Part shown: positions 26,241-64,000 of the stretch, one piece after another
Position numbering within the stretch: the stretch's first letter is position 1
How the letters are laid out: every line of letters starts with the position of its first letter
Assembly: GCF_988242995.1 (NCBI RefSeq)
Contig: NZ_OZ547043.1
Direction: 5' to 3' (one strand)
DNA: 64,000 nt
Translations under genes and position numbers: made by a program
The notes under the pieces: generated by a model
What the model was told of the DNA's origin: nothing
What the model saw: only the letters and a program-made list of their open reading frames with translations
Databases searched by the model: none

Positions 26241-26328
26241 TTCGTTAAATCCCTAATTACAACGTACCCATACATCCCCCCATCTACGGATGGGGTAGGT
26301 TAACTATAACTTTCAGACAGGGTTTCCC

Positions 26329-43096: not shown

Positions 43097-44306
<1,210 letters not shown>

Positions 44307-44310
<4 letters not shown>

Positions 44311-44957
44311 GCCTCTGCTCCGGGTTTGATCAGCATCAGACCACAGCCGAACGCGCGGCTTTTGCCATACCCCTGACTGAGACGTTGCAGAAATAACCCG
44401 GGATCGGTGACCGTAAGCATCCCCGTATAATCCACGCTACTGAACTGGATCAGTTGCCGGGAGTTTTCCCGCCACAGTTGCTGTTGTCGGTAGGCATCAA
44501 CCGAGGTATCCAGCAGTGTAAAACCGCTTCTCTCCCCCTGCGCTGCCAGCCAGTCCAGCGCCGCCTGTTGTTGATGCAACCAGACATCACTTCCTTCCGC
44601 CTGCCCCCTCACCTGCCGTTTCGCCTCCATCAGCAGATCGTGGCGCTTGCCCGCTTTACAGATTGTTGGATTCGCCCGCAGGTTGAAACAAAGTTGTTGT
44701 CCGGTACGCAGCTCGGGCACAAATGACCGGCATTCGATGGTGAACGTTTCACTTTCCGCCGGGCGTTCCTGCGACAGGACAAAAAAGCGAAACGCCCCCT
44801 GGAGTTCTTCCCGACGATAAAGAAATTGCCTTTCTTTGCCGCCAGGAAAAAGATCCCACAGCCACTGATGCATTACATATTCACCGCGATCCACCAAATG
44901 CAGCAACTGCGCAGGCGAAAGCTGGCCGGTATGTAAGGTTATTCTTGAGAGGTACAT
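44307..44957 (-). CDS. cas6e: Cas6e (CasE/Cse3) crRNA endoribonuclease
   Basis: ORF 44307..45095; start taken at ATG 44957 (MYLSRITLHTGQ...) behind AAGGAGG; position between cas5 and cas1. Confidence 0.85.
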
Positions 44958-45685: not shown

Positions 45686-45695
45686 TAGCCGCCCC

Positions 45696-46751: not shown

Positions 46752-46765
46752 GAGATAGTCCTTTA

Positions 46766-47302
46766 TTAATTTTGTTCGTTATCGGCGTCGCCAGCCTGGT
46801 AATATTCCAGCGCCCAGCGGATACGGATAAATTCTGTTGGCCGCTGCTGGCGGCGGTGATGATTGAGCAGGTCGTCGCTCTCCTGGCACCAGCGGAAAAT
46901 ATCGTCTGCCAAAGAGATAAGATTGACGGAACCATTTAATAATTTGACCGCGCGACGTAACTGACGCAGTAAATCATCAGGCGTTTTTACTGCCGACAGG
47001 CGAGTAAAACGCCCCTCCGACATTACCGCCGCCAGCTGCGCGGCAAAAGGCTGCCGTTCATCAATAGCTTTAACATTGGCGCTAACTGCGGCGACCAGCG
47101 CCAGTGCGGTAAAACGCCACTCTTGTGCTTCAATTTTCCACAAAGTGTGGGTCTGCATCAGCAGAGAACGAAACCCTTCTGACAGACAAACATCATTAAC
47201 CGTTGTGCTACGCCGCAGACTGGCACGATTGCCGCGTTTTTCCTGCAACTCTTCGTGCCATTTACGCAGCGTGGCTTTGTGCTCCTCTTTTACAATACTC
47301 AT
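46766..47302 (-). CDS. cse2: Cse2 (CasB) Cascade small subunit
   Basis: 178-aa ORF; operon position; 4-bp overlap with cse1 stop. Confidence 0.8.
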   Translation of the reverse strand: MSIVKEEHKATLRKWHEELQEKRGNRASLRRSTTVNDVCLSEGFRSLLMQTHTLWKIEAQEWRFTALALVAAVSANVKAIDERQPFAAQLAAVMSEGRFTRLSAVKTPDDLLRQLRRAVKLLNGSVNLISLADDIFRWCQESDDLLNHHRRQQRPTEFIRIRWALEYYQAGDADNEQN

Positions 47303-48867: not shown

Positions 48868-48958
48868 CCTCTCGTAAAAAAGACCATCCTAGGTCGGTTG
48901 TCCATCATTCCATCCTTTTCGGTGTATCAACTATTCAGAGAGCCCTGTCGCAGGCATC

Positions 48959-51658
48959 TCAACCAACCTTGCCAGTCAATCCTTCCATAGCCGAATACCC
49001 GCAACTTTCGTCATCGGTAACTAAAATCACGTTTGCCATCTCCGGATCTTTCCGCTGTTCAATGCACCACTGCCTGAACGCTTCCCCTTCCAGTAAAGAA
49101 AACTCATCCCGATGTTTTTTCCACCAGCTTCGACGCACTCTGACAACGCTCATTTCCCATGCGTGAGCACCGTTGGCATAAGGCTTCACCACACTGGCAA
49201 TACAGGTAGCCAGCCACAGGGAAACAGACTCCTCCGCCAGACGTGTCGACAGCTTTTCCGGAAGGTAATCGTTGATATTGGCGGCATAGCCAGGCCTGAA
49301 GTTCAGCACAAACTTTTTAGCCATTGCGCGATCGCAGTAATATTTGCCCACTTGCTCCTGCTCGCTGCGGGCAAATCCTTCCGGCATTACCACGTCCTCA
49401 CCGTAGACTGATTCAATAAGAAGGCGGGCTGCGTGTGGCATTTGAATAGCGCCTTGCTCACGCAGTACACGCTGCGTCAGCCAGATTCGTCCATGATCGG
49501 GATAGACATATGCACTGTTACGCATGGCACTGCCGAACCATTCGTCACCTGGAGCGTCGTCCCAGACGGGGGCCAGAATCAGCAATTCAGGAGGGGAACG
49601 CTCGTCTTTTCCGTCACGCTTTAACTGACCATTAATATCGCGGATATGCCGCTGTAATCGCCCCGCTCGCTGGATCAGCAAATCAACAGGGGCCAGGTCG
49701 GAAATCATTTCGTCCATATCGCAATCAACGCTCGACTCTAAGACCTGAGTACAAATGAGGACTTTTCCGGCACGCTGTGAGCTATCTTCTTTACCGAAGC
49801 GTGCCAGCGTTTCCGTTTCAATTCGCTGGCGATCGCTAAAAGCAAAGCGGCTATGAAACAGAGAAAGGCTGGAAGCAGGAATGACGCCGCGGGCAAGCAA
49901 CTGACGATAAACCTTAATAGCGTCATCGACAGAATTCCGGATCCAGGCGATGCATTTCCCCTGACTTACTGCCGATTCGATACGCGCAATACATTCTTGT
50001 TCGCTATGAAGCCAACCCACGCTCACGCTACGCTCAACGTCTTTGCGCGTCGCTACCCGGTGTGAATGCACATCGGATTTCGTAACGTGCGTCAGCCAGG
50101 GGTAATCATCCTTTTCCAGGAACGGAGCTTCTTGCTGGCCCTCTGTACCACGCGCAAAGGCAGCAACGAGTTTGTCGCACTGCTGTTGAGATAACGTGGC
50201 AGAAAGCAAAATGACGCTGTTTCCGCCACGCGCCTGCCGCTCGATCAGCCCTTCAAGAATGCATGACATGTAAGCGTCACAGGCATGGATCTCATCAGCC
50301 AGCAGGATTTTGTTACTCAGTCCCAGAAGCCGCAGATTATTATGTTTGAACGGCATCACAGCCATCATCGCCTGATCCAGCGTGCCGACGCCAATTTCAG
50401 CCAGTAGCGCCTTCTTGTTACTGTCGGCAAACCAGGCCGCACATCCCTGACTGAACGTTTGTTCATCCGGTTCTTCTGACCCGACTAAATCACCGGACCA
50501 GAGTGATTCATTAAAGCGGTCCATTAATGTTCGGGCACTGTGTGCCAGCACCAGGCTGGGGCGGGACTCTGGCGAATAGAAAGCAAGCCAGGTTTTGACC
50601 AGTCGATCGTACATGGCATTGGCCGTTGCCATTGTTGGCAGGCCAAAAAACAAACCCTGCGCTTTACCCGCAGCCATCAACCTGTGCGCCAGGATAAGCG
50701 CCGCTTCCGTTTTACCTGCGCCAGTCACATCTTCCAGAATAAATAACTGTGGCCCTGGCTGGCTGATATCCAGATCCAGCACCTTTTGCTGTAACGGTGT
50801 CGGATTCTCAATAAAAGGAAACAGCGTATTAATTCCGGTGAAAGGCGCGACTTTTGCTTTTAGAGGAAAGACGGTTAAGGCGTTTTGAGCCTGAACTAAA
50901 GTTTTCTGCCAGTAACCTTTATTATCCATTGGGTGTGCGACGCGTGGAAAAAATCGCGTTGACGAACCCGTCCAGTCTGCGAGCACGACGGTTGCAGAGA
51001 TATACCAGGAAAGGTGTTTTATAAGTTCAATGCCCTCATCATCATCCCAGAATGCGGGGATCTCTATGAGCGGAAACAGTGGTTTGATTTCAAGAAGAAA
51101 ATCTCGCGCGGCAGCTTTGTCTTCAGGCAGAAAATTATCCAGTTCATCAATACGGTCAGGCGGGCGACCATGATGCCCGGTAGTTATGGGCATCCACATC
51201 GCTATTACACGTGTAAGTTTGCGGGGAGAGAGTGAAGAGGAAGGAAGTAACTCCTGACATTCACTTAAATAATGATGCCACAACCAGTAGCCCAGCGTTG
51301 AATGAGAGATTTTTTCGTAATTTTTTCTAGCACCTTCCGGAACCCTGAGTTTCGGGTGCAGGTAAAGTTGCTGAAATGAGCGGGCAAATTTACCAGTATC
51401 GTGCCAGCACAACAACCAGGCGAAAAATTGAGCCGCCTGTTCCTTGTCAGAAATCTCTAATTGACGAAAATAGTCAGCCAGTCCGAAGCAATTGCTTTTA
51501 ACCATTAAATAGCCCATCGCGGCTACATCCAGCGAATGCCAGCAAAGAAGGTGATAGTCGTCGCCCCCGTCTTTCTCGCCGCGTCGGGTTTTTCCCCAGA
51601 AATCAAAAAAAGTCACAATATTTTTATCCTTCAGTAAACTTAAAGGATATTTACGCAT
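48959..51658 (-). CDS. cas3: Cas3 nuclease/helicase (HD domain + SF2 helicase)
   Basis: 899-aa ORF; N-terminal HD region (HSLDVA, WHDTGK), helicase motifs GAGKTEAA and DEIH. Confidence 0.93.
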   Translation of the reverse strand: MRKYPLSLLKDKNIVTFFDFWGKTRRGEKDGGDDYHLLCWHSLDVAAMGYLMVKSNCFGLADYFRQLEISDKEQAAQFFAWLLCWHDTGKFARSFQQLYLHPKLRVPEGARKNYEKISHSTLGYWLWHHYLSECQELLPSSSLSPRKLTRVIAMWMPITTGHHGRPPDRIDELDNFLPEDKAAARDFLLEIKPLFPLIEIPAFWDDDEGIELIKHLSWYISATVVLADWTGSSTRFFPRVAHPMDNKGYWQKTLVQAQNALTVFPLKAKVAPFTGINTLFPFIENPTPLQQKVLDLDISQPGPQLFILEDVTGAGKTEAALILAHRLMAAGKAQGLFFGLPTMATANAMYDRLVKTWLAFYSPESRPSLVLAHSARTLMDRFNESLWSGDLVGSEEPDEQTFSQGCAAWFADSNKKALLAEIGVGTLDQAMMAVMPFKHNNLRLLGLSNKILLADEIHACDAYMSCILEGLIERQARGGNSVILLSATLSQQQCDKLVAAFARGTEGQQEAPFLEKDDYPWLTHVTKSDVHSHRVATRKDVERSVSVGWLHSEQECIARIESAVSQGKCIAWIRNSVDDAIKVYRQLLARGVIPASSLSLFHSRFAFSDRQRIETETLARFGKEDSSQRAGKVLICTQVLESSVDCDMDEMISDLAPVDLLIQRAGRLQRHIRDINGQLKRDGKDERSPPELLILAPVWDDAPGDEWFGSAMRNSAYVYPDHGRIWLTQRVLREQGAIQMPHAARLLIESVYGEDVVMPEGFARSEQEQVGKYYCDRAMAKKFVLNFRPGYAANINDYLPEKLSTRLAEESVSLWLATCIASVVKPYANGAHAWEMSVVRVRRSWWKKHRDEFSLLEGEAFRQWCIEQRKDPEMANVILVTDDESCGYSAMEGLTGKVG

Positions 51659-51825
51659 ATATTAAAAATTATCTGTGATATATATCGTTCAATAAAATAT
51701 TTACATTATGAATAATCAAATAATTTTCATCAGTAATATATATGAATAATAAACATAGGCATAATATTCACATAAACAATATAAATTAAAAAAGGGTGCA
51801 GGAGACCAAACCATCACAATTCAAT

Positions 51826-51847
51826 ACGCGGGGTTTTACCCCCGCGT
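51826..51847 (-). other. GC-rich hairpin immediately downstream of hok-like ORF; possible terminator or mRNA 3' fold-back element
   Basis: ACGCGGGG-TTTTAC-CCCCGCGT, 8-bp perfect stem. Confidence 0.35.
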
Positions 51848-51852
51848 GGTGG

Positions 51853-52005
51853 CTACTTCTTCGATTCGTAAGCGAGAACTGCCTTAAACTCCATACCACG
51901 TTCTCTGATACTCAACTCACACAACGAGTCGCCTACCATCAGCGTGAATCCCAGTACTGTACAACACAGTACGATGATTGCCACAAGGGCATATTTTGTC
52001 AGCAT
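51853..52005 (-). CDS. Hok/Gef-family type I toxin (small membrane peptide, HokE-like)
   Basis: 50-codon ORF absent from ORF track: [50 protein letters not shown]; GGGAGG RBS; TM helix plus conserved Cys; resembles Hok peptides from memory. Confidence 0.65.
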
Positions 52006-52270
52006 GTCTTGCCTCCCTGCAAAGAAGAGACTAACATTCGAATTGCTTAGGTTCGAACGCTGGCCTCAGGTTGATAGAAATATCGCCTGGGGCTTTTGTC
52101 CATCTGGAACCTCGCGAATGCTTAACGCCAGACAGCCTCAAGCACCCAACGCCATTCTATACTTGATAATTCTTCCAGCGGCGTTCACGTTTAAAATCAG
52201 GAATGCTGCTCGCAAAATAAAAACGCCCCCATCTTTTCAGACAGAGACGTTTATTAAGCGGTACGATATT

Positions 52271-53005
52271 TTACCCTTCGTGCAGCCCACATTCCCTTTT
52301 TAAGCCAAAGAAACGCGTTTCTTCTTCCGCCATGCCGGGTTCCCATTTACGGGTTGTATGGGTATCACCGACGGATAAATATCCTTCGTCCCATAATGGA
52401 TGATATTTCAGGCCATGTTTTTGCAGATACTGATATATCGTTCGGTTATCCCAGTCGATAATCGGCAGCACTTTAAATACGCCACGCTGAATTGCCAGCA
52501 CCGGTAAATTGGCGCGACTGCCGGATTGTTCGCGGCGCAGGCCAGCAAACCACGTTTGCGCATTCAGTTCTTTCAGCGCCCGGTTCATCGGTTCGACTTT
52601 GTTGATGTCATTGTACTTTTCAATGCCTTCAACACCCTGCTCCCACAGTTTGCCGTAGCGCGCTTCCTGCCAGGCGGCGCTTTCGGTAGCGCGGTACACT
52701 TTCAGGTTGAGCTTGAGTTTGTCCGTTAACTCGTCAATAAAGCGGTAGGTTTCCGGGAACAGATAACCCGTATCGGTCAGGATCACCGGGATATCCGGGT
52801 GAATCTGATTCACCAGATGCAGGCTCACCGCCGCCTGAATGCCGAAACTGGAAGAAAGTACATATTCACCGGGCAGATTATCCAGCGCCCAGGCAACGCG
52901 GCCTTCAGCATCCAGTTTTTCCAGTTCGGCGTTAGTTTCTGCCAGCGCCAGAATGCGATCTACCTTCGGCAGTTCGTTCAGGGCGTTTAGATCGAGTTTG
53001 GACAT
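52271..53005 (-). CDS. cysH: Phosphoadenosine phosphosulfate (PAPS) reductase
   Basis: ORF 52271..53158; start taken at [14 protein letters not shown] (244 aa); C-terminal ECGLH motif. Confidence 0.95.
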
Positions 53006-53026
53006 AGATTCCTCACTGTTTGCCTT

Positions 53027-53062
53027 GCCTGATGCGACGCTCACGCGTCTTATCAGGCCTAC
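53027..53062. repeat. REP (repetitive extragenic palindromic) element between cysI and cysH
   Basis: GCCTGATGCGACGCTCACGCGTCTTATCAGGCCTAC matches the E. coli REP consensus family. Confidence 0.75.
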
Positions 53063-53078
53063 AAGACCGGGCTGATGG

Positions 53079-54791
53079 TTAATCCCACAAATCGCGCGCC
53101 GGATCGAGCACCGGGCGAATGATGCCCGCACGCACCGTAAAGTCGCCGAAGCCTTCACCCGCTTCGCGCTCTTTCGCCCAGCGCCCTATCAGTTCATCAA
53201 GCGACGCCAGGATTTCCGGCTCGGTGATGTTTTCTTTATACATCCGTGGGATACGTGTCCCAATGCGGTTGCCGCCAAGATGCAGGTTGTAGCGACCCGG
53301 CGCTTTACCCACCAGGCCCACTTCCGCCAGCATCGCGCGACCACAACCGTTCGGGCAGCCTGTTACACGCATCACGATATGCTCATCGCTGACACCATGT
53401 TTCGCCATTAAATTATCGATGTTGTCGATAAAAGACGGCAGGAAACGCTCGGCTTCGGCCATCGCCAGCGGGCAAGTCGGGAATGACACGCAGGCCATTG
53501 AGTTTTCACGCTGCGGCGTGACGGCATTCATTAACCCGCTCTCTTTGGCGATCTTCTCGATCTTCGCTTTCTCGCTTTCCGGCACACCGGCGATGATCAG
53601 ATTCTGGTTCGCCGTAATGCGGAAATCACCTTTGTGGATCTTCGCGATCTCCAGCAGGCCAGTTTTCAGCGGACGCCCCGGATAATCAAGGATGCGACCA
53701 TTTTCGATAAACAGCGTCAGGTGCCAGTTATCATCAATGCCCTTAACCCAACCAATACGATCGCCGCGTCCGGTAAACTCATACGGACGGATCGGTTCAA
53801 ATTTGATCCCCGCGCGACGCTCCACTTCCGCTTTAAACGTCTCAACCCCCACGCGCTCCAGCGTGTATTTGGTTTTGGCATTTTTACGATCGGTACGGTT
53901 ACCCCAGTCGCGCTGAGTCGTCACGACGGCTTCTGCCACCGCCAGCGTATGCTCCAGCGGCAGATAACCAAACTCACTCGCCGTGCGGGCGTAGGTTTTC
54001 TTGTTGCCGTGCTCGATGGAAAGCCCACCGCCCACCAGCAGGTTAAAGCCCACCAGCTTGCCGTTTTCGGCGATCGCCACGAAGTTCATGTCGTTGGCGT
54101 GCAGATCGATATCGTTCTGCGGCGGGATCACTACCGTGGTTTTGAATTTACGCGGCAAATAAGTCTGACCGAGGATCGGTTCTTCATCGGTGGTGGCGAC
54201 TTTTTCCTGATCGAGCCAGATCTCCGCATACGCGCGGGTACGCGGCAGCAGATGTTCAGATATTTTCTTCGCCCATTCATAGGATTCCGCGTGCAGCTGC
54301 GACTCGTAAGGGTTCGAGGTACAGAGTACGTTACGGTTCATGTCGTTGGCGGTAGCCAGCGCATCAAGACCGACTGAGTGCAGCATCTGGTGCACCGGTT
54401 TGACGTTCTTTTTCAGAATGCCATGGAACTGGAACGTCTGGCGGTTGGTCAGGCGAATGCTGCCATAAATGGTGTTTTCACCGGCAAATTTATCGATCGC
54501 CTGCCACTGTTTGGTGGTAATCACCCCACCCGGCAGACGACAGCGCAACAGCATTGCATGACGTGGCTCCAGCTTCTGTTCAGCACGTTCAGCGCGGATG
54601 TCGCGGTCATCCTGCTGATACATGCCGTGGAAGCGGATCAGCAGGAAGTTGTCGCCCTTAAAACCACCGGTCAGACCGTCGTTTAAATCTTCCGCAATGG
54701 TGCCGCGCAGGTAGTTGCTTTCAAGCTTCATGCGCTCGGCGTCTGTCAGTTTTCCTTCGACCACTAAAGGCCCTGGATGTTTTTCGCTCAT
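53079..54791 (-). CDS. cysI: Sulfite reductase (NADPH) hemoprotein beta subunit
   Basis: 570-aa ORF; siroheme/Fe-S cysteine cluster region; synteny. Confidence 0.95.
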
Positions 54792-56590
54792 TAGTAGACA
54801 TCTCGCTGATAACGGCGCTCTACGCGCAGCTCACTTAAAAATTCATCCGCCGCTTCGGTGTCCATGCCACCAAATTCGGCAATCACTTCCAGAAGTGCCT
54901 GCTCAACGTCTTTCGCCATGCGATTAGCGTCGCCGCAGACATAAATGTGGGCACCGTCATTGATCCAGCGCCACAGCTCCGCGCCCTGTTCGCGCAGTTT
55001 GTCTTGTACATAAACTTTTTCTTTTTGGTCGCGCGACCAGGCAAGATCGATGCGGCTCAATACGCCTTCTTTCACGTAGCGCTGCCACTCCACCTGGTAG
55101 AGGAAATCTTCCGTAAAGTGTGGGTTGCCAAAGAATAGCCAGTTTTTACCCGGCGCTTCGTCGGCAGCACGCTGCTGCATAAAGGCACGGAACGGCGCGA
55201 TGCCGGTGCCAGGGCCAATCATGATCACCGGGGTTTCCGGGTTAGCGGGCAGGCGGAAGTTGTCGTTATGTTCGATAAAGACGCGGACTTCACCCTCTTC
55301 TTCCACACGATCCGCGAGGAAGCTGGAGGCACCACCGGCACGGGCGCGGCCTTCCACGTCGTAACGCACCACACCAACGGTAACGTGCACTTCGTTCTCG
55401 ACTTCCGCCTGCGAGGAGGCGATGGAATACAGGCGCGGGGTCAGCGGGCGCAACAGATTAATCAGCGCTTCGGCATCCAGTTGCGCCGGAGAGAAACGCA
55501 CCATGTCGACAATCGGCGTGGTCGCGGCGTAATGCTGTAACTTCGCTTTATCGCCCACCAGCGGCAGCAGCGTTTCGCTGCGGGTAAGCGTGGCATAGTT
55601 CTCAACAATGTTGGCGGTGTTGACGGTCAGTTCGAAGTGCCACTGTAGCGCTTCGTTCAGCGGCAGGGTTTTGCCGTCAACGGTGACAGTTTCATCGCCT
55701 TTCAGCCACAGCAGTTCGACAAGTTCTTTCACCAGTGCCGGATCGTTCTGATACCAGACGCCCAGCGCGTCACCCGGCTGGTAACGCAGGCCCGAGTCAC
55801 CTAAGTCAATTTCGATATGGCGAACGTCTTTTTCAGAGTTACGCCCGGTAATTTTCTGGTTAACAGAGAGGCTCGCCACCAGCGGCGCGTCTTTGCTGTA
55901 CGGGCTGGTGTGGATTTCATTTACCGCGCCAGTAGCGACGGATTGCGAAGGTGCCGCGACAGGCGCACGCGATTTAAGCGCATCAACCACGCGGGCGCGC
56001 CACTCGCTGGCAGCGGCCTGATATTCAACATCGGCATCGACACGGTCGAGCAGGCGTTCACCGCCCAGTTCCGCCAGCTTACTGTCAAAATCTTTCCCGG
56101 ACTGGCAGAAAAATTCATAAGAGCTATCGCCGAGGCTAAACACGGCAAACGCGGTGTTTTCCAGCTTTGGCGCTTTTTTGGAGAACAGGAACTTATGCAG
56201 CGCGACGGCTTCTTCCGGCGGTTCCCCTTCCCCTTGCGTTGACGTCACCACGATGAGCAGTTTTTCGCTGGCGATTTGTTTGAATTTATAGTCGCCCGCG
56301 TTCACCAGCTTAACGTTCAGTTTTGCCGCTAATAAATCATCGCGTAATGCTTCAGCAACCCGGCGCGCATTGCCGGTTTGCGAAGCGGAGATAATAGTTA
56401 TACCCGGCATTTCTGCGGCGGGCGCTGGCGTCGCTGCAAGCGCAGCAGGCTGCTGGTTGAGCACGCCCCAGAAATAGCCAGAAACCCAGGCAAGCTGGGT
56501 GGGAGTTAAATCGGTCGTGGCCGCCTGAAGGCGTGCCAGTTGCTCCGGGTTCAACGGAAGCAACGCGGAAGGTGGGACCTGTGTCGTCAT
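54791..56590 (-). CDS. cysJ: Sulfite reductase (NADPH) flavoprotein alpha subunit
   Basis: 599-aa ORF with flavodoxin-like and FAD/NADPH-binding regions. Confidence 0.95.
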
Positions 56591-56905
56591 GCGTCGTTAT
56601 GTTCCAGTAAGCAAAGCTGTTTCTGCGCCCTGTCAGCGCCCATAAAACAGAAGAGAAGGTAAGGTTAACGGGGTGAACGGTGTGGATTAAAGACGGGATA
56701 GCGATAACTAATAACCAAATCGACTAACCTGTTTTAGCAATAGTCTTTAACAACAAAATAGATTAACCAACCCAATGAAAAACAAATGAATTTAGCCAAT
56801 CATTAAGATAAATCAGCGATTTTGCGCAACAAAGTCGTTTTAGATAATGCGAAAAAACAGCCTTTCCGGTACTCTACGGCGGTTTTATCGTCCTGTAGAG
56901 AAATT

Positions 56906-57271
56906 ATGATGTCCACCACGTTATTTAAAGATTTCACCTTCGAAGCCGCTCACCGCTTACCACACGTCCCGGAAGGGCATAAATGTGGTCGCCTGCACGG
57001 ACATTCCTTTATGGTGCGACTGGAAATTACCGGGGAAGTCGATCCGCATACGGGCTGGATTATCGATTTCGCTGAACTGAAAGCGGCATTTAAACCAACC
57101 TATGATCGCCTCGATCACTATTATCTCAATGATATTCCTGGCCTGGAAAACCCGACCAGCGAGGTTTTAGCAAAATGGATTTGGGATCAGGTTAAACCGG
57201 TTGTTCCGCTGTTAAGTGCGGTTATGGTGAAAGAAACCTGCACCGCAGGTTGCATCTATCGCGGCGAATGA
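56906..57271 (+). CDS. queD: 6-carboxy-5,6,7,8-tetrahydropterin synthase
   Basis: ORF 56822..57271; start taken at [19 protein letters not shown] (121 aa); zinc ligands CGRLHGHSF. Confidence 0.9.
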
Positions 57272-57348: not shown

Positions 57349-58620
57349 ATGGAAGACGACTGCGACATTATTATTATTGGTGCGGGTATAGCAGGCACCG
57401 CTTGTGCTTTACGCTGCGCGCGGGCAGGTTTGTCCGTTCTGTTACTGGAACGCGCTGAAATCCCCGGCAGCAAAAATCTTTCCGGCGGGCGTTTATACAC
57501 CCATGCGCTCGCGGAACTCCTCCCGCAATTTCATCTGACCGCGCCTCTTGAACGACGCATCACTCACGAAAGCCTTTCTCTGCTAACGCCGGATGGCGCA
57601 ACGACGTTTTCCAGCTTACAGCCCGGCGGTGAATCCTGGAGTGTATTACGTGCACGGTTCGATCCGTGGCTGGTTGCCGAAGCCGAAAAAGAAGGTGTCG
57701 AATGCATCCCTGGTGCGACGGTGGATGCGCTGTATGAAGAAAACGGCAGGGTGTGTGGTGTCATTTGTGGTGACGATATTCTCCGCGCCCGTTATGTGGT
57801 GCTGGCAGAAGGTGCCAACAGCGTCCTGGCTGAACGTCACGGGTTAGTGACTCGTCCTGCTGGCGAAGCGATGGCGTTGGGGATCAAAGAAGTGCTGTCG
57901 CTGGAAACATCCGCTATTGAAGAACGTTTTCATCTGGAGAATAACGAAGGCGCAGCGTTGCTGTTCAGCGGCGGGATCTGTGATGACTTACCCGGCGGCG
58001 CATTTCTTTATACTAATCAACAAACGCTCTCGTTAGGGATTGTTTGCCCGCTCTCTTCCCTTACGCAAAGTCGTGTTCCGGCAAGCGAGCTGCTGGCTCG
58101 CTTTAAAACGCATCCGGCAGTGCGCCCGCTTATCAAAAACACGGAATCACTGGAGTATGGTGCGCATCTGGTGCCAGAAGGTGGCTTGCACAGTATGCCG
58201 GTGCAATACGCCGGTAACGGCTGGCTGCTGCTGGGCGATGCGTTGCGCAGTTGCGTCAATACCGGAATTTCCGTGCGCGGCATGGATATGGCGCTAACTG
58301 GCGCGCAGGCGGCGGCACAAACGCTGATAAGCGCCTGCCAGCACCGCGAGCCGCAAAATCTGTTTCCGCTTTATCATCACAACGTCGAGCGCAGCCTGCT
58401 ATGGGATGTTCTACAACGTTATCAGCATGTTCCGGCGCTTTTGCAACGCCCTGGATGGTACCGTGCGTGGCCTGCGTTAATGCAGGATATTTCCCGCGAT
58501 TTATGGGATCAGGGTGATAAACCTGTTCCACCGCTGCGCCAGTTATTCTGGCGTCATTTACGTCGTCACGGCCTGTGGCATCTGGCGGGCGATGTTATCA
58601 GGAGTCTGCGATGTCTGTAG
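57349..58620 (+). CDS. ygcN: FixC-like electron-transfer flavoprotein-quinone oxidoreductase
   Basis: Start at MEDDCDIIIIGAGIAG (FAD-binding GxGxxG), 423 aa. Confidence 0.88.
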   Translation: MEDDCDIIIIGAGIAGTACALRCARAGLSVLLLERAEIPGSKNLSGGRLYTHALAELLPQFHLTAPLERRITHESLSLLTPDGATTFSSLQPGGESWSVLRARFDPWLVAEAEKEGVECIPGATVDALYEENGRVCGVICGDDILRARYVVLAEGANSVLAERHGLVTRPAGEAMALGIKEVLSLETSAIEERFHLENNEGAALLFSGGICDDLPGGAFLYTNQQTLSLGIVCPLSSLTQSRVPASELLARFKTHPAVRPLIKNTESLEYGAHLVPEGGLHSMPVQYAGNGWLLLGDALRSCVNTGISVRGMDMALTGAQAAAQTLISACQHREPQNLFPLYHHNVERSLLWDVLQRYQHVPALLQRPGWYRAWPALMQDISRDLWDQGDKPVPPLRQLFWRHLRRHGLWHLAGDVIRSLRCL

Positions 58621-58871
58621 CCCGTAATCTCTGGCGCGTTGCCGATGCGCCGCACATTGTTCCGGCTGACTCCGTTGAGCGCCAGACGGTACAACGGTTG
58701 ATTAACGCTTGTCCGGCTGGTCTTTTTTCGCTCACACCGGAAGGTGACTTACGCGTTGATTATCGCGGCTGCCTGGAGTGTGGCACCTGCCGTTTGCTGT
58801 GCGACGAATCAACACTACAACAGTGGCGCTATCCGCCTTCCGGATTCGGCATCACCTACCGTTTTGGATAA
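58611..58871 (+). CDS. ygcO: FixX-like ferredoxin
   Basis: Start at MSVARNLWRV (86 aa); Cys cluster CLECGTC; 10-nt overlap with ygcN. Confidence 0.85.
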   Translation: MSVARNLWRVADAPHIVPADSVERQTVQRLINACPAGLFSLTPEGDLRVDYRGCLECGTCRLLCDESTLQQWRYPPSGFGITYRFG

Positions 58872-58887
58872 ATAATAAGGATAATTT

Positions 58888-59463
58888 ATGCCCCTCTTAC
58901 ACCTGCTCCGCCAGAATCCGGTGATTGCTGCCGTTAAAGATAATGCCAGCCTGCAACTGGCAATCGACTCTGAATGCCAGTTTATTTCCGTGTTGTACGG
59001 CAATATCTGCACCATTAGTCAAATCGTTAAAAAGATTAAAAATGCCGGAAAATATGCTTTTATTCATGTTGATTTGCTGGAAGGCGCGTCAAATAAAGAA
59101 GTGGTGATTCAGTTTTTGAAACTGGTGACTGAGGCGGACGGCATTATCAGTACCAAAGCCTCAATGTTGAAAGCGGCAAGAGCGGAAGGTTTTTTCTGTA
59201 TTCATCGCCTGTTTATTGTTGATTCAATTTCGTTTCACAACATTGATAAGCAAGTTGCGCAATCGAATCCGGATTGTATTGAGATCCTGCCAGGCTGTAT
59301 GCCTAAAGTGCTGGGCTGGGTGACGGAGAAAATCCGCCAACCGCTGATTGCCGGCGGGCTGGTGTGCGATGAAGAAGATGCGCGTAATGCGATTAACGCA
59401 GGTGTCGTGGCGCTTTCCACCACAAATACCGGGGTCTGGACGCTAGCGAAAAAATTGCTTTGA
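58888..59463 (+). CDS. ygcP: GlpP-like glycerol-3-phosphate-responsive antiterminator family protein
   Basis: 191-aa ORF; synteny. Confidence 0.82.
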   Translation: MPLLHLLRQNPVIAAVKDNASLQLAIDSECQFISVLYGNICTISQIVKKIKNAGKYAFIHVDLLEGASNKEVVIQFLKLVTEADGIISTKASMLKAARAEGFFCIHRLFIVDSISFHNIDKQVAQSNPDCIEILPGCMPKVLGWVTEKIRQPLIAGGLVCDEEDARNAINAGVVALSTTNTGVWTLAKKLL

Positions 59464-59487
59464 CGGGATAATCGTAACGAATTGAAT

Positions 59488-59565
59488 TTGTGTGATTTGT
59501 AGGCTGCACGCCACATCCGACATTCAGCGCCTGATGCGACGCTTGACGCGTCTTATCAGGCTTAC
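59488..59565. repeat. REP/BIME element between ygcP and ygcQ
   Basis: GCCTGATGCGACGCTTGACGCGTCTTATCAGGCTTAC at 59529-59565, preceded by a partial inverted REP-like unit. Confidence 0.65.
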
Positions 59566-59609
59566 AAGTCCCCAAGCCAGAACCGTAGGCAGGATCATCC
59601 GGCAGCACG

Positions 59610-60470
59610 TTATTGGCAATCTGCGTGAATGGTTGTCACCAGTGCCTCCAGCACCGCTTTCCAGTCATCAACCACGCCAACATCTGCCTGTGAAAATACC
59701 GCTGCACTGGCGTCATGATTAATCGCCACCACAAACTTGCTATTGCGTACGCCCGCCATTAACGCTGCTGCGCCGGAAGCGCCAACGACAATACACACCT
59801 CAGGTGCCAGCAGATGTCCAGAAATACCAATCACTTTTTCGGCATCAACGCCACCATTCATCACTCGTGCCCGACTGTAGCCCACTTCGGCTCCCAGCTT
59901 TTCTGCCAGCATAGCGATTTCCTGGTTATCTGCCTCTCCGCCCTGCCCCACCACCAGCACCCGTCTGGCCTCAGCTAATGGGTCACGGGTAACATTTTTC
60001 AGATCCTCTGTGCTAACCAGCCAGTCGGGAAGCGCGCCGGGGACAATGTTCAGTTGCTGCATACCAGAGGGCAATGTGGCGTTTTTCACTGCTCCCGCCT
60101 GGCGGGCAAGGGAAAGGCATAGCGGGCGTTTTTCTGTTTGCAGCGTCGCCGTTAGCGCATTTCCCCAGTGGGATTTGCGCACGCTTACGGTTGAAATATC
60201 TAACGAAGTCACCTGGCAGATGCTTGCACCATGTAAACGCCAGGCCAGCCGGGTCGACAGTTCATCACCAAACGTTCCCGGCGGAAAGAGAACAACGTCC
60301 GCTGGCGTTCGCTGCCACTGTTCCACCAGCGCATCCAGCACCTGTTCCGCCACTACGGGCTGAGGTTCAATCTGCCAGTGTGCCAGGGTACAACCGCTGA
60401 AATCCTGTTCTGCCAGCCAGCTCGCTATTGCGGCATTCTCCTGATTTATTGTCACAATTGCGATATTCAT
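59610..60470 (-). CDS. ygcQ: Electron transfer flavoprotein alpha subunit (FixB-like)
   Basis: ORF 59610..60503; start taken at MNIAIVTINQ (286 aa). Confidence 0.87.
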   Translation of the reverse strand: MNIAIVTINQENAAIASWLAEQDFSGCTLAHWQIEPQPVVAEQVLDALVEQWQRTPADVVLFPPGTFGDELSTRLAWRLHGASICQVTSLDISTVSVRKSHWGNALTATLQTEKRPLCLSLARQAGAVKNATLPSGMQQLNIVPGALPDWLVSTEDLKNVTRDPLAEARRVLVVGQGGEADNQEIAMLAEKLGAEVGYSRARVMNGGVDAEKVIGISGHLLAPEVCIVVGASGAAALMAGVRNSKFVVAINHDASAAVFSQADVGVVDDWKAVLEALVTTIHADCQ

Positions 60471-61246
60471 GGCTGCATCCTTTGGCGTAAATAGTCCTGC
60501 CATAGCTTTTGCGCTTTTTCTGCTACCGTTTGCCCATCAATCAGCGTCGCTCCGCGTTGTTGCTCTGCTCTTGCCAGTTGCAGACACTGCATCGCTGGCG
60601 ATTCGGCAGCAACAGTTTTACGGATAATTGCTGCTTTCCCCGCCGCCATTCGCTGACGCATTCCCGGTACTGGCAAGGCCACTTCACCGCACTGACGCAC
60701 GGCAATCACCGCAGGCAAGCGAACCCGGCAACAGCGCAGCCCGTTTTCAGTACGCTGTTCGAGGGTGATAAACAGCGCGTCGAGAGTGAAACGCTCCACC
60801 TGGGTGAAGCAGGGCCAGCCCAGCATTTCCGCCAGCAAAAATGGCGTTTGCCCATTCTGCCCTTCGCTGCTTTGGCAGCCGGTAATTATCAGATCCAGCG
60901 GATTCTGACGCTGCCATTCGGCAATATGGCGAGCGACAAATTCCGGCGCAAAGCGCAGATCTGCCGCCGTCTCCAGTAATACAGCTTCCTCAAACCCAAG
61001 AGCCATGAGATAGCGCAGCCAGTGCAACGCCCGTTCATCCCCCATGCTCAACGCGGTTAAAGACATCGACGTACCGTTTTTTCTCTGCGTCAACAGCAGC
61101 GCGGCGGCAGCCTGTTCATCAGCACCGAGTAAACTTCGCAGAAGCGAAACATCCGGTCCGCTATTACCCTGAGCCGCCGCCTGCCACTCTTTTTCCGCCA
61201 GCATTCCGGCATCCGGTTCGGCTTTAAACGCTAACAGAATGTTCAT
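60467..61246 (-). CDS. ygcR: Electron transfer flavoprotein beta subunit (FixA-like)
   Basis: ORF 60467..61252; start at MNILLAFKAEPD (259 aa); 4-bp overlap with ygcQ. Confidence 0.87.
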   Translation of the reverse strand: MNILLAFKAEPDAGMLAEKEWQAAAQGNSGPDVSLLRSLLGADEQAAAALLLTQRKNGTSMSLTALSMGDERALHWLRYLMALGFEEAVLLETAADLRFAPEFVARHIAEWQRQNPLDLIITGCQSSEGQNGQTPFLLAEMLGWPCFTQVERFTLDALFITLEQRTENGLRCCRVRLPAVIAVRQCGEVALPVPGMRQRMAAGKAAIIRKTVAAESPAMQCLQLARAEQQRGATLIDGQTVAEKAQKLWQDYLRQRMQP

Positions 61247-62561
61247 TCGCACCTCCTACATTTCCCGCCGCCACCAGCGGGAGTGCTTTGGTTTCTGGTG
61301 CCCATAGCCAGGTCACGACAAAACCAACCAACAACACTGCCGCCAGGAGCAATAAGGTGACTTGCATTCCCCACTGCGCCAGCACCCACGGCAGCAGGCC
61401 AGTACTTACCGCCGCCCCCAACCGACTCATGGCGGTGGCAAAACCGACGCCCAGCGAGCGAATGTCAGTAGGAAAACTTTCCGCAGGCAAAATGCCCACC
61501 AGATTACTGACTGCCGAAATGGTGGTGCTGAAGAGAACAAAAAGCAGCAGCGTTAATGAACTGCCGGAAGGCAAACAGGCCATCACTACCAGCGTTGCCG
61601 CCAGCAGCAAAAAACTTCCCAGCAAAAATTTGCGATGTGCCAGCAGGTGCGTCAGAACTAATCCCAGCAGCGCGCCAACAATTAACAACGCATTAAGCAT
61701 CAGGCTGGCGGTCAGCGCATCTTCCAGACCAATAGTTTGGGCAATGGTAGGCAGCCAGGTATAAATCACAAACCATGGGATTACGAGGCAGACAAAGAAG
61801 ACGCTGTTAAACGCCGTGCGCCGCCAGTAGCGCGAAGAGAACAAGGTTTTGATGTGTTTATGGGTCGCCGTTGCCACTTCATCGCCCAGTAAAACATGGG
61901 GACCAAAATAGCGATGCACGATAGCGTGAGCTTCTGCAAAACGCCCCTGGCGCAGTAGCCAGCGTGGCGATTCTGGCGTTCCCCAGCGTAATAACGTAAT
62001 CAACAACGCGGGCAGAGCTGCCGATGCCAGCAGCCAGCGCCAGGCCTCCGGGCTTTCGCTAATAAAGTGATGTCCGGCAATACTTGCCAGCACATAGCCT
62101 ACGGTCCACACCACACTGAATGCGCCCAGCAAAATACCGCGATGGCGGCGCGGGGAAAATTCAGCCAGCAAGGTGTGACCGACTGAGTAATCGCCTCCCA
62201 GACCAATGCCGATCAAAATGCGTAGTCCAATAAGATGCTCTGGCGTGGTGGCAAAAAATTGCAAGAACGAAGCGAGCGTAATCAGCAAAAAGCTGAAGGT
62301 GAAGATTTTTTGCCGACCAATATAGTCGGAGATCCACCCCAAAACCAGGCTACCGATAAACAGGCCAAGTAGCGCCGAGCCGCCAATCATTCCCGCCATA
62401 AACGGCGTCAGTTGCATGGCGGGCGTAAGCTGAATAATGGCGTAACCAATGACGCCGAGAACATAACCGTCGGTCAGGTGCGCGCCGAAAGTGAGCGCAG
62501 CAATTCGACAGTGAAAACGGTTAAGCGGTAAATCATCCATTCGCACCGGTGAAGTGTTCAT
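61224..62561 (-). CDS. ygcS: MFS transporter
   Basis: ORF 61224..62633; start taken at MNTSPVRMDD (445 aa); polytopic membrane protein. Confidence 0.85.
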   Translation of the reverse strand: MNTSPVRMDDLPLNRFHCRIAALTFGAHLTDGYVLGVIGYAIIQLTPAMQLTPFMAGMIGGSALLGLFIGSLVLGWISDYIGRQKIFTFSFLLITLASFLQFFATTPEHLIGLRILIGIGLGGDYSVGHTLLAEFSPRRHRGILLGAFSVVWTVGYVLASIAGHHFISESPEAWRWLLASAALPALLITLLRWGTPESPRWLLRQGRFAEAHAIVHRYFGPHVLLGDEVATATHKHIKTLFSSRYWRRTAFNSVFFVCLVIPWFVIYTWLPTIAQTIGLEDALTASLMLNALLIVGALLGLVLTHLLAHRKFLLGSFLLLAATLVVMACLPSGSSLTLLLFVLFSTTISAVSNLVGILPAESFPTDIRSLGVGFATAMSRLGAAVSTGLLPWVLAQWGMQVTLLLLAAVLLVGFVVTWLWAPETKALPLVAAGNVGGANEHSVSV

Positions 62562-62654
62562 CTTTACCCCTTCATTGTCCGGTAATAAGAACGGCTTCTC
62601 GCCTGAGAAGCCGAAAAGGCAACGCTCCGTCATCGCGGAACGCTGCCTGACACA

Positions 62655-64000
62655 TTATTTTTCAATCGGATAGATAGTACCCGTATTCATAATGCCGTTA
62701 GGATCGAACTGCTTTTTCAGCCCTTCCAGCAACGCCCACGCGCTGCCGTGTTCCAGCTTGCTCCAGTGAACGCGATGTTTACCAATGCCGTGGTGGTGCA
62801 CCATCGAACCACCGAGGCGAATGGTTTCTTCGCAGATGATTTTGTTGAGCGGATTGTGGTACTTGTCGATTTCCTCTTCCGGCTTACAGTCAACGACGTT
62901 GTAGTCGTAGACGAAGTACATGTTGGTGCCGTTCTGGTAGCTATGAGAGGAGTGACCGCCCAGCATGGTGATGTCGTCGGCGTGCGGGAACTCGGTACGA
63001 ATACGGTTAATAACGCTTTCGTAGATTTCGTGGATGCAGCTCCAGCAGCCGGACACTTCGGTGGTAAAGCCCATGTTGCCGGTTTTGAGGATCTGCACAC
63101 GTTCAGCGGCCACTTTATCCGGCCCCCAGTTCAGGTGATTAAACCAGGTTTCGATCAGCTTGCTGTCCACTCGCTGGCATTGCGGGTAACGTGCCACGAT
63201 TTCCGCAATCCCTTCGCCTGTCGCCTTCGCAATGCGAGGGTTGCCTTCAGCCATAAAGATCAGCACACATTTACCATCGGCAAAATGGGTGAAGTGTTGG
63301 GTGCCATCTTCAGCGTCATACAAACGAGCGATCGACGGACGATACCCTTCCACCATGATTTCACGCAGGATGTTGAAGCCGGTTTTCATGTCTTCCAGGA
63401 TATAGCCGTAGAAGAGGTTGTTTTCCGGGGTGAACTTAAAGATTTTCACAGTTACTTCAGTGATATAGCACAATGCACCTTCGTTGCCGATGATGATGTG
63501 ACGAATGTCCGGGCCTGCCGCGCGGCGTGGTACGTTTTTAATGCGTGTTACGGTGCCATCAGCCAATACTGCTTCCAGACCAACGACCATATCTTCGATT
63601 GCGCCGTAGAGTGTGGAGAACTGCCCGATACTGCGGGTTGCTACCAGGCCGCCCATCTGCGCCAGCGGCTTTGACTGCGGAGAATGCCCCGTGGTGTAAC
63701 CTTTTTCACGCAACGCGTTTTCCAGCACTTCCAGCAGAACTCCGCATTGCGCCGTGGCCTGCATATTCTCAATATCAATATTAATGATTTGATTCATGGC
63801 AGAGCCGTCGAGCACCACCGAGTTTTCCACAACGGTTTCCAGCCCACCTTCGGTAGCGGAAGCACCGGTACGCGGCACACCGTTAATTTTGTGCGCATTC
63901 ATAAAATTCAGCACACGGGATACTTGTTCTGTGGAACCGAGTTTTACGACCGCTGCCGGAATCGGCAAAGTATAAATGCCATGAATATCCGGAAATTTGC
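62655..64000 (-). CDS. ygcU: FAD-linked oxidoreductase, C-terminal part; 5' end lies beyond the window
   Basis: Open frame from 62655 to the window edge; FAD-binding oxidase-like translation; synteny. Confidence 0.85.
   Translation of the reverse strand, partial: KFPDIHGIYTLPIPAAVVKLGSTEQVSRVLNFMNAHKINGVPRTGASATEGGLETVVENSVVLDGSAMNQIINIDIENMQATAQCGVLLEVLENALREKGYTTGHSPQSKPLAQMGGLVATRSIGQFSTLYGAIEDMVVGLEAVLADGTVTRIKNVPRRAAGPDIRHIIIGNEGALCYITEVTVKIFKFTPENNLFYGYILEDMKTGFNILREIMVEGYRPSIARLYDAEDGTQHFTHFADGKCVLIFMAEGNPRIAKATGEGIAEIVARYPQCQRVDSKLIETWFNHLNWGPDKVAAERVQILKTGNMGFTTEVSGCWSCIHEIYESVINRIRTEFPHADDITMLGGHSSHSYQNGTNMYFVYDYNVVDCKPEEEIDKYHNPLNKIICEETIRLGGSMVHHHGIGKHRVHWSKLEHGSAWALLEGLKKQFDPNGIMNTGTIYPIEK

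Follow-up and report, generated by a model that had tools for sequence, protein, structure and literature searches.

A conserved leader RNA and a GlpP-type protein probably control the ygc locus of Escherichia coli, an orphan catabolic system

The window analyzed here is a 64,000-nucleotide stretch of contig NZ_OZ547043.1 (NCBI RefSeq assembly GCF_988242995.1). Its interval from 57349 to 62561, which holds ygcN, ygcO, ygcP, ygcQ, ygcR, and ygcS, had been described in an initial annotation as a coherent, poorly characterized redox module of the FixABCX type, with an unknown substrate. We find that this interval is part of a ten-gene locus that also includes ygcU, ygcW, yqcE, and ygcE and that is organized as three units, ygcNOP, ygcW-ygcU-ygcS-ygcR-ygcQ, and yqcE-ygcE. 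A leader RNA switch, together with the GlpP-type protein YgcP, probably controls the locus, and the part that is conserved across phyla in the loci compared consists of the enzymes YgcW, YgcU, and YgcE and not the electron-transferring flavoprotein (ETF). Regulation and architecture are well supported by this comparison. The pathway that we propose as a whole, in which CRP and YgcP-mediated antitermination would activate the catabolism of a glycerol-like compound and electrons would pass from YgcU through the ETF YgcRQ and the YgcO/YgcN pair to quinone, is in our judgment evenly balanced between right and wrong. The locus is an orphan catabolic system assembled from known types of parts, in a combination for which no pathway is described in the literature searched.

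Architecture and conserved core of the locus

We compared 80 loci around relatives of YgcU, taken from one genome per species, plus five more looked up by protein, and their neighbors were mapped by BLASTP; the sample covers Enterobacterales, Desulfobacterales, SAR324, Negativicutes, Clostridia, Bacilli, and Actinomycetes. Every complete locus encodes a trio consisting of YgcW, a short-chain dehydrogenase/reductase (SDR), the flavoenzyme YgcU, and YgcE, a kinase of the FGGY family. In most lineages, ygcU is followed directly on its 3' side by the genes of an ETF pair of the YgcR/YgcQ type, which Erwinia, Pantoea, Izhakiella, Serratia proteamaculans, Halobacillus, Virgibacillus, SAR324, and Saccharopolyspora lack. 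YgcN and YgcO are confined to Enterobacterales, and there to loci with YgcRQ, and most lineages with a YgcRQ-type ETF have no FixC- or FixX-type protein; on the distribution seen here, the pair is an addition made in Enterobacterales only. The transporters also vary by lineage, Enterobacterales having the major facilitator superfamily (MFS) proteins YqcE and YgcS and the others having BCCT or OpuC-type ABC transporters, and MttB-family methyltransferases are frequent neighbors. Strict anaerobes carry an extra LctD/GlcD-like oxidase with a His/His/Glu metal motif (FGHxxxxHxH...SEHGVG), and some of their loci include a second ETF pair whose alpha subunit has a ferredoxin domain.

Further lineage-specific parts were seen. 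In the ETF-less loci of Erwinia, Pantoea, and S. proteamaculans (L036, L041, L048, L050, and L051), ygcS is followed by an aldehyde dehydrogenase of the succinate-semialdehyde dehydrogenase type, which scores 661 bits on TIGR01780, over the cutoff, and in S. proteamaculans ygcU is followed by two DUF1254/DUF1214 proteins. A seven-gene operon of Alkalihalobacillus encodes an aspartase-like lyase, an aldehyde dehydrogenase resembling betaine aldehyde dehydrogenase, a zinc-dependent alcohol dehydrogenase, a BCCT transporter, and homologues of YgcW, YgcE, and YgcU; the lyase is also present in Desulfopila, at 41% identity. In a metagenome-assembled genome (MAG) of Bacillota (L074:12428-13948), the MttB homologue under the leader RNA scores 402 bits on the trimethylamine methyltransferase model (cutoff, 525) and is nearer to true MttB than are other neighboring MttB homologues (236 and 54 bits), with no in-frame stop in the open reading frame (ORF) call. 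The PanB protein encoded beside it is a bona fide PanB (339 bits, over the cutoff) and was set aside as probably unrelated to the pathway.

Within the window, the gene order that had been reported, ygcN, ygcO, and ygcP followed by convergent ygcQ/ygcR and ygcS next to ygcU, agrees in position and strand with the ORFs and with the RefSeq annotation of the best-matching E. coli genome, in which gene names and order are identical (ygcN ygcO ygcP on the + strand and ygcQ ygcR ygcS ygcU on the - strand) and in which ygcW, yqcE, and ygcE come after ygcU, outside the window end. The family assignments (FixC-, FixX-, and GlpP-like proteins, ETF alpha and beta subunits, an MFS transporter, and an FAD-linked oxidase) were all reproduced by Pfam, NCBIfam, and PDB searches. 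The coherent redox module is real and intact; what did not stand is its extent, the unit being larger than the interval, with ygcQRS lying in an operon headed by ygcW-ygcU. The observation and its reading were correct, if incomplete.

Pseudogenization, which the initial annotation had named as an outcome that would speak against it, was checked and is not found, because all interval genes are uninterrupted ORFs at the expected positions (ygcU alone exits the window, at 64000) and because the ratio of nonsynonymous to synonymous substitution (dN/dS) is 0.01 to 0.3 for each gene in comparisons with other Escherichia and with Citrobacter and Klebsiella. Of 5426 complete E. coli genomes, 5091 carry 80% or more of the 5.2-kb interval. 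The genes do differ in rate. Between E. coli and Citrobacter, YgcP, YgcW, and YgcU are 93 to 96% identical, with dN/dS of 0.01 to 0.03 (YgcP itself, 96% and 0.015), and YgcQ, YgcR, YgcO, and YgcN are 62 to 77% identical, with dN/dS of 0.05 to 0.3; the values for ygcQ (0.13 to 0.3) indicate rapid evolution under constraint. The ETF and FixCX module is thus evolving rapidly, is still under purifying selection, and contains no pseudogenes. The description of the genes as poorly characterized agrees with a 2022 review that lists YgcRQ as being of unknown function (PMC9329746). In recent work, ygcU is mentioned only for a negative result on d-serine deamination (PMC13012123), and no functional study on a gene of this locus turned up in full-text literature searches.

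The leader RNA and YgcP

In E. coli, the divergent ygcW and yqcE operons are separated by a 318-bp intergenic region with two CRP sites, TGTGATCGTAATCACA and CGTGATTACTCTCACA, which are the only matches in the 29-kb E. coli locus and are each centered about 41.5 nt upstream of the first leader base, a class II placement. Chromatin immunoprecipitation in enterotoxigenic E. coli found CRP occupancy at ygcW/yqcE (PMC4287617), and yqcE-ygcE is included in a list of Crp-activated genes (PMC8085971). Each of the two leaders contains a strong intrinsic terminator directly before the start codon (-37.9 and -22.3 kcal/mol, with z scores of -6.4 and -3.9). The leader is about 70 nt long and can fold either as the intrinsic terminator or with a 6-bp antiterminator helix; its motif, (A/C)AGUUAC(C/U)AGAG..GAGAAA(A/G)GUAACUUCC-loop-GGAAGU..GCUUUUCUC-U7-9, is common to the upstream regions of ygcW homologues in Firmicutes, Actinomycetes, Photobacterium, and all Enterobacterales.

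From 17 hand-picked copies we built a covariance model, which at a threshold of E < 1e-6 identified 113 leader copies in 63 loci and none in the 64,000-nt window, which ends inside ygcU. The terminator stem is paired in 94.5% of cells, with double changes at 10 of 15 pairs. In the antiterminator, upstream GUUAC(C/U) can pair with (A/G)GUAAC within the 5' arm of the terminator, and six pairs are well supported: pair 6:42 is GC in 69 copies, AU in 36, and other in 4; pair 14:37 is UA in 76, CG in 25, and other in 8; and rare GC and CG variants of pairs 9:39 and 8:40 occur in Saccharopolyspora and in an enterobacterial MAG. A candidate seventh pair, 5:43, is unsupported in the leader alignment. 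When the partner strand was slid, pairing fell from 93% to between 15 and 53%, and none of 500 shuffles reached the observed antiterminator covariation; the leader copies are often related by descent, so that such counts overstate the number of independent events, and the changes recur in separate phyla. Leader column 37 shows covariation with each of its two partners, as mutually exclusive folds would predict. The best Rfam match reaches 26 bits against a gathering score of 90, with all matches far below threshold, and the leader region, present in 5066 E. coli genomes, lies in a stretch without an annotated feature. The switch is described neither in Rfam nor in the literature searched. A northern-verified small RNA located "upstream of yqcE on the same strand" (PMC4681348) fits the terminated form of this leader.

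The genes downstream of the leader in Enterobacterales are ygcW-ygcU-ygcS-ygcR-ygcQ and yqcE-ygcE; in Firmicutes they include operons of ygcW, ygcE, ygcU, and ETF homologues, BCCT genes, an ABC operon of the OpuC type, and one MttB gene, and the leader also precedes such genes in Actinobacteria. No glpK, glpD, or glpF gene was found under the motif among the motif-bearing loci. A metagenome scan with the motif core returned mostly E. coli-like yqcE leaders, and the remaining true matches added no new types of neighbor; about a dozen others (at phage terminase and argG genes, for example) had no terminator and were discarded as chance matches. An additional 8-bp 5' hairpin, AUUAUCUC/GAGAUAAU, whose loop would hold the P1 5' strand, can arise in the ygcW leader of E. 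coli (L001:19630-19715, - strand, outside the window). This hairpin occurs in Escherichia and Citrobacter only and, being unconserved elsewhere, was set aside as a part of the switch.

The candidate regulator is encoded by ygcP (58888 to 59463, + strand), a GlpP-family protein of 191 amino acids that we propose to be an RNA-binding antiterminator; it matches PF04309 (G3P_antiterm) with an E value of 1.4e-62 over profile positions 1 to 173 of 173 and the solved structure 3kts with an E value of 8.5e-28. Among loci holding ygcW and ygcU, YgcP and the motif are both present in 58 and both absent from 18 (Desulfobacterales, SAR324, and others); YgcP occurs without the motif in 2 loci, both with weak variant matches, and the motif without YgcP in 4, 3 of which are on truncated contigs. 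The label of antiterminator originally attached to ygcP thus gains support from conserved terminator/antiterminator leaders at ygcW and yqcE that track the presence of the protein. The locus of Serratia microhaemolytica (L035) is complete and has both leader motifs, with no ygcP within 10 kb on each side and no tblastn remnant; either ygcP lies elsewhere in this genome or the leaders work without YgcP. Because ygcNOP forms a separate convergent unit and has no leader RNA, expression of the regulator and of the FixCX-like proteins is probably separate from that of the operons behind the leaders.

Enzyme chemistry, electron flow, and candidate substrates

The 3' 447 codons of ygcU lie at 62655 to 64000 on the - strand; the start is beyond the window end, and about 37 initial codons are missing. 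YgcU combines FAD_binding_4 (PF01565) and FAD-oxidase_C (PF02913) domains and resembles alkyl-dihydroxyacetone phosphate (DHAP) synthase (ADPS, or AGPS), its closest solved structure (4bby; phmmer E value, 2.8e-40), ahead of glycolate oxidase, LctD, and d-lactate dehydrogenase (D-LDH). Structure prediction, which had been suggested as a means of inferring the substrate class, led to the same enzyme, the top 31 Foldseek matches of the AlphaFold2 model (predicted local distance difference test [pLDDT] score, 66) all being AGPS. The ADPS residues Arg419, Tyr578, and His615-617 align with R262, Y398, and H438-440 of YgcU, residues that do not vary among 11 sequences representing at least 5 phyla, and YgcU has VHHHGIGK and not the His/His/Glu metal site (H..H...EHG) of the GlcD, LctD, and LDHD d-2-hydroxyacid dehydrogenases. 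The protein is 65 to 76% identical across phyla (71 to 73% in Sporomusa, Alkalihalobacillus, Desulfobacula, and Photobacterium). Residue 59 of YgcU aligns with residue 215 of ADPS, and roughly the first 150 ADPS residues have no YgcU counterpart; the N-terminal part that is lacking, some 150 to 200 residues of ADPS, contributes to its fatty-alcohol tunnel. YgcW is a KduD-like SDR (350 bits on the KduD model, against a cutoff of 369), and KduD and gluconate 5-dehydrogenase oxidize a CHOH group adjoining a terminal CH2OH. The nearest relatives of YgcE are xylulokinase and autoinducer-2 kinase. We infer that the trio would fit the conversion of X-CH2-CHOH-CH2OH to X-CH2-CO-CH2-OPO3, a 1-substituted DHAP, which is the type of substrate used by ADPS.

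The proteins that would carry electrons onward are all encoded in the interval. The FixC-type ETF:quinone oxidoreductase flavoprotein YgcN (57349 to 58620, + strand; 423 amino acids) scores 379 bits on NCBIfam PRK10015 (FixC/YdiS-like) and 364 bits on the FixC model and has a DAO domain and an ETFQO_UQ-bd quinone-binding domain in Pfam, the latter at 30.6 bits against a cutoff of 27.7; its closest solved relative is the EtfC/FixC protein of Thermotoga maritima (7koe_C; E value, 3.6e-57), over its full length. YgcO (58611 to 58871, + strand; 86 amino acids) is a FixX-type ferredoxin-like protein (NCBIfam FixX E value, 5e-24; T. maritima EtfX, 7koe_D, E value, 1.4e-13) with a single Cys4 motif (C-P ... 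CxxCxxC), the three N-terminal cysteines of the second EtfX cluster being missing from the alignment. E. coli FixX is likewise a one-cluster protein, so that the single cluster separates YgcO from T. maritima EtfX and not from E. coli FixX. YgcQ (59610 to 60470, - strand; 286 amino acids) and YgcR (60467 to 61246, - strand; 259 amino acids) are divergent alpha and beta ETF subunits that score far under the cutoff of every curated ETF model. YgcQ matches PF00766 (ETF_alpha) with an E value of 1.1e-17, has LctC and ETF alpha as its top PDB matches (about 6e-22), and retains the FAD-binding SR, GxSG, GxSGA, and VAINxD motifs; the flavin-adjacent Gln-His of human ETF is replaced by AAL or AAF in all YgcQ-type proteins. 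YgcR matches PF01012 with an E value of 3.8e-16 and Paracoccus ETF beta, its top PDB match, with an E value of 2e-12, reaches at best 43 bits on NCBIfam ETF-beta models with a cutoff of 350, and has a nucleotide loop, GxQSSEGQNGQT, that is intermediate between the AMP and FAD types. The transporter YgcS (61224 to 62561, - strand; 445 amino acids from the K-12-type start) is of the sugar-porter type (PF00083, Sugar_tr; E value, 2e-53) and also resembles the aromatic-acid and organic-cation MFS subfamilies.

We propose that the interval supplies the regulator (ygcP), the respiratory link (ygcN, ygcO, ygcQ, and ygcR), and one transporter (ygcS) of the ten-gene catabolic locus. CRP and antitermination by YgcP would turn on the ygcW and yqcE operons; YgcP would bind a phosphorylated intermediate, the product of YgcE, and stabilize the antiterminator helix, so that transcription enters the operons. 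The substrate would be a small compound with a glycerol-like end, X-CH2-CHOH-CH2OH, which the kinase YgcE and the SDR YgcW would convert into a 1-substituted DHAP analogue, and YgcU would attack the carbon adjoining the keto group by ADPS-type flavin chemistry. Two electrons would then pass from the FAD of YgcU to the ETF YgcRQ, to the single [4Fe-4S] cluster of YgcO, to the FAD of YgcN, and into the quinone pool, a path that we consider plausible. Lineages without the dedicated ETF may use a housekeeping ETF or carry out a redox-neutral reaction of the ADPS type.

As to the substituent X, it probably bears a quaternary ammonium group in Firmicutes and marine bacteria, where the occurrence of BCCT, OpuC-type, and MttB genes under the same leader points to a trimethylammonium-like group. 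Several other compounds that were considered found no support. Plain glycerol would make the SDR superfluous, and E. coli already has glpK and glpD; erythritol and other neutral polyols do not fit BCCT, OpuC, and MttB; 2,3-dihydroxypropane-1-sulfonate (DHPS) is anionic and unlikely to be taken up by BCCT; and carnitine suits the SDR, ADPS-like chemistry on 3-dehydrocarnitine, and the succinate-semialdehyde dehydrogenase-like neighbor but not the FGGY kinase and a phosphorylated inducer. A more specific version, which we regard as doubtful though not negligible, is a reversal of ether-lipid synthesis in which YgcE, YgcW, and YgcU cleave water-soluble 1-O-substituted glycerols and YgcP senses the 1-substituted glycerol-3-phosphate. 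YgcE would phosphorylate the free primary hydroxyl, YgcW would oxidize C2 to yield 1-O-substituted DHAP, and the tunnel-less YgcU would break the C1-O (or C1-N) bond, either hydrolytically, to give DHAP, or oxidatively, with two electrons passing to the ETF; YgcP would open a new class of leader RNA switch. The gene content of the Alkalihalobacillus seven-gene operon leads us to suggest, with low probability, that the substrates in marine bacteria and Firmicutes are deacylated betaine-lipid head groups such as glyceryl-trimethylhomoserine, the DGTS head group. DHAP and homoserine betaine would be released, the latter would be oxidized by the alcohol dehydrogenase and the betaine aldehyde dehydrogenase-like enzyme, and the aspartase-like lyase would then yield fumarate and trimethylamine. 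Such deacylated head groups exist free in nature, as GCC (PMC10362313), and a literature search gives homoserine betaine as a cyanobacterial osmolyte.

A number of points weigh against the pathway that we favor. The literature searched contains no experiment tying any ygc gene to a substrate or to another ygc gene. The AlphaFold2 model of YgcU is mediocre (pLDDT, 66), and D-LDHs follow closely after AGPS among its matches (E values of 1e-23 and 1e-26, respectively); the ADPS reaction, moreover, is a net nonredox exchange, in which a fatty alcohol replaces the acyl group of acyl-DHAP, and does not in itself require an ETF. A dedicated ETF is not essential to the pathway, because the trio occurs without one in Erwinia, Pantoea, Halobacillus, SAR324, and Saccharopolyspora. 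The binding of RNA by YgcP is a proposal based on the co-occurrence of protein and motif, and the counts of co-occurrence are inflated by shared ancestry. As ygcNOP is leaderless and convergent, YgcN and YgcO may not be coinduced with YgcRQ, and the argument for a quaternary amine may not extend to E. coli, which has MFS transporters and not BCCT or OpuC.

Alternative arrangements of the same proteins can be envisaged. Electrons might run in the reverse direction, YgcN/O and YgcRQ delivering reducing equivalents from quinol or NADH to YgcU for a reductive cleavage or reduction, much as FixABCX is thought to feed CaiA in the reduction of crotonobetaine by E. coli; related clusters are enriched in strict anaerobes and stand beside quaternary-amine transporters, as do cai and fix, and reductive cleavage is conceivable for a 1-substituted keto compound. 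We consider this unlikely, given that the relatives of YgcU (ADPS, D-LDH, glycolate oxidase, and LctD) take electrons or a carbanion from their substrates, that aerobes have the same trio without an ETF, and that the E. coli locus encodes no low-potential donor. It could also be argued that YgcQRNO is a self-contained bifurcating NADH:quinone/ferredoxin (flavodoxin) oxidoreductase of the FixABCX/EtfABCX type that merely happens to neighbor a sugar-type operon unrelated to it: the closest resemblance of YgcN and YgcO is to EtfC and EtfX in the bifurcating EtfABCX of T. maritima, and the YgcR N terminus, FKAEPD, resembles, by the KQVPD motif, that of FixA-type proteins rather than canonical ETF beta. 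This arrangement is hard to reconcile with the translational coupling of ygcR-ygcQ to ygcS in the ygcW-ygcU operon and the position of the ETF genes after ygcU in nearly all phyla, with one cluster motif in YgcO against two in T. maritima EtfX, with scores for YgcQ and YgcR far below curated ETF cutoffs and a nonbifurcating ETF as the top PDB match of YgcR, or with the lack of FixC and FixX in most lineages that have a YgcRQ-type ETF, and we give it a slim chance.

The remaining explanations concern the leader and the state of the locus. The leader could itself bind a small molecule, as a riboswitch, in which case YgcP would be a TIM-barrel protein of an enzyme-like kind or a regulator that acts at other places; the element is a compact terminator/antiterminator whose purine-rich loop (AGAG...GAGAAA) is conserved, Rfam does not contain it, and RNA binding by YgcP rests on co-occurrence. 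The presumed aptamer, however, would consist of a 6-bp helix and a loop of about 15 nt only, the motif tracks YgcP (58 and 18 concordant loci against 6 discordant), the YgcP-less lineages with the same enzymes (Desulfobacterales and SAR324) are also motif-less, and characterized GlpP acts by leader antitermination, all of which make a riboswitch quite improbable. Finally, the E. coli locus might be a cryptic, decaying remnant in which the rapid evolution of ygcQ, ygcR, ygcN, and ygcO reflects loss of function. The dN/dS ratios of the ETF and FixCX genes are 5 to 10 times those of ygcU, ygcW, and ygcP, their identity between E. coli and Citrobacter is put at only 55 to 75% in this comparison, against 93 to 96% for the core, and no phenotype is reported in the literature searched; but all ORFs are intact, dN/dS stays at 0.05 to 0.3 even at saturating dS, the FAD-binding motifs of YgcQ are kept, and E. 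coli genomes mostly carry both the interval (5091 of 5426) and the leader region (5066), so that decay appears very improbable. We retain the catabolic pathway, with YgcP acting on the leaders and YgcRQ and YgcO/N serving YgcU, as the working model.

Other features of the window and comparison with known systems

The genes of the interval are closely packed. In the + unit, ygcN and ygcO overlap by 10 nt, and ygcO and ygcP are separated by 16 nt; in the - unit, ygcR and ygcQ overlap by 4 nt and ygcS and ygcR by 23 nt, and ygcU and ygcS are separated by a 93-nt spacer. A 146-nt gap lies between the convergent genes ygcP and ygcQ and contains a repetitive extragenic palindrome (REP; 59529 to 59565, strandless, an inverted repeat with 14-nt arms) with one mismatch to a REP consensus; it is the sole match in the window, where 0 are expected, and is the probable end of both transcription units. 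A GC-rich intercistronic hairpin (62592 to 62613, - strand) with a 9-bp stem that includes 6 GC pairs, followed by UUCUUAUUAC, lies between ygcU and ygcS. Hairpins with other sequences occupy the same position in Citrobacter, Mixta, Cedecea, Limnobaculum, and Rahnella, so that structure is kept and sequence is not; the fold has a z score of only -1.8, and we read it as a partial terminator or an mRNA stabilizer. It was rejected as a third target of YgcP, as it has no leader motif and its sequence is unconserved. The Prokaryotic Genome Annotation Pipeline starts ygcS at 62633 (469 amino acids), 24 residues beyond the K-12-type start at 62561; the extension (62562 to 62633) is not conserved in other Enterobacterales and encodes the hairpin, and the start at 62561, with GAAGGGG just before it, is likely to be the true one.

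The window is E. coli DNA, and among the 5426 complete genomes of this species the interval reaches 98.4% identity at best. The ygc interval represents an allele unseen among these genomes, and the adjacent cas/cys region (44000 to 57000) is up to 99.6% identical to its counterpart in strain MEW; synonymous divergence from the genome labeled "E. coli E69" (L009) is 0.17 to 0.59, matching that from E. albertii. A type I-E CRISPR array (42100 to 43000; 61-bp period; repeat, CGGTTTATCCCCGCTGGCGCGGGGAACAC) and a complete cas3-cse1...cas1/cas2 set (43387 to 51658) sit between iap and cysH, at the site of which an E. coli comparison genome (L001) has a Hok/Gef gene. Upstream of the ygc interval, five codirectional ORFs of 302, 420, 212, 258, and 454 amino acids (22657 to 27693) may be the ygbJKLMN cluster for tetronate catabolism of the K-12 map.

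What had been an unknown redox module can now be put as testable predictions on its pathway core, on the RNA element and protein that should control it, on the type of chemistry to be expected of YgcU, and on the type of compound that would be consumed. As orphan genes of E. coli go, the ten ygc/yqc genes are comparatively well conserved, and YgcQR/YgcNO is the third ETF system of this species. Should the substrate carry a quaternary amine, the locus would represent a new oxygen-independent route with a bearing on trimethylamine formation in the gut and on the marine turnover of algal betaine lipids and osmolytes. The leader is a compact and portable terminator/antiterminator switch, distributed over Proteobacteria, Firmicutes, and Actinomycetes, that could be used as a reporter to find the inducer.

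Several known systems provide points of comparison. The four protein types of FixABCX/EtfABCX (E. coli fixABCX and ydiQRST and the T. maritima EtfABCX complex, 7koe) are all present in the ygc locus; in contrast to those contiguous operons, the ygc genes form two convergent units, ygcNO(P) and ygcRQ, with ygcRQ embedded in the catabolic ygcW-U-S operon, the ETF subunits YgcQ and YgcR are far more divergent than FixAB and YdiQR, and YgcO has one [4Fe-4S] motif where T. maritima EtfX has two. In LctBCD of Acetobacterium woodii and Ldh-ETF of Fusobacterium nucleatum, a flavoenzyme of the VAO/GlcD superfamily is likewise encoded beside its own EtfB-EtfA pair, and LctC is the top PDB match of YgcQ, yet YgcQ has no ferredoxin domain; the versions of the ygc locus in anaerobes include a genuine LctD-like oxidase and, in some cases, an EtfA with a ferredoxin domain, as in Lct systems. 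Chains composed of a dehydrogenase, an ETF, and an ETF:quinone oxidoreductase parallel the proposed path from YgcU through YgcRQ and YgcO/N to quinone. YgcU shares with ADPS/AGPS the fold and the catalytic Arg, Tyr, and His-His-His, and differs in being soluble, in being paired with a kinase and an ETF in a catabolic context, and in having a substrate that is presumably small and polar. In ether-lipid synthesis, a short-chain dehydrogenase acts on the 2-keto group of 1-substituted DHAP, and this acyl/alkyl-DHAP reductase parallels YgcW, the invariant partner of YgcU. For GlpP of Bacillus subtilis, which controls glpD, glpFK, and glpTQ, the ligand is glycerol-3-phosphate, and the 5' untranslated region is described as holding a promoter, the GlpP site, and a terminator (PMC9604022). 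By this description, the ygc leaders have the same layout, with a promoter, a conserved site, and a terminator before the first gene, and in both cases catabolite control is layered on top, through CRP in the case of ygc. In contrast to the B. subtilis system, the genes under the ygc leaders are not glp genes, the ligand is probably other than plain glycerol-3-phosphate, and the ygc-type system extends over Proteobacteria as well as Firmicutes and Actinomycetes.

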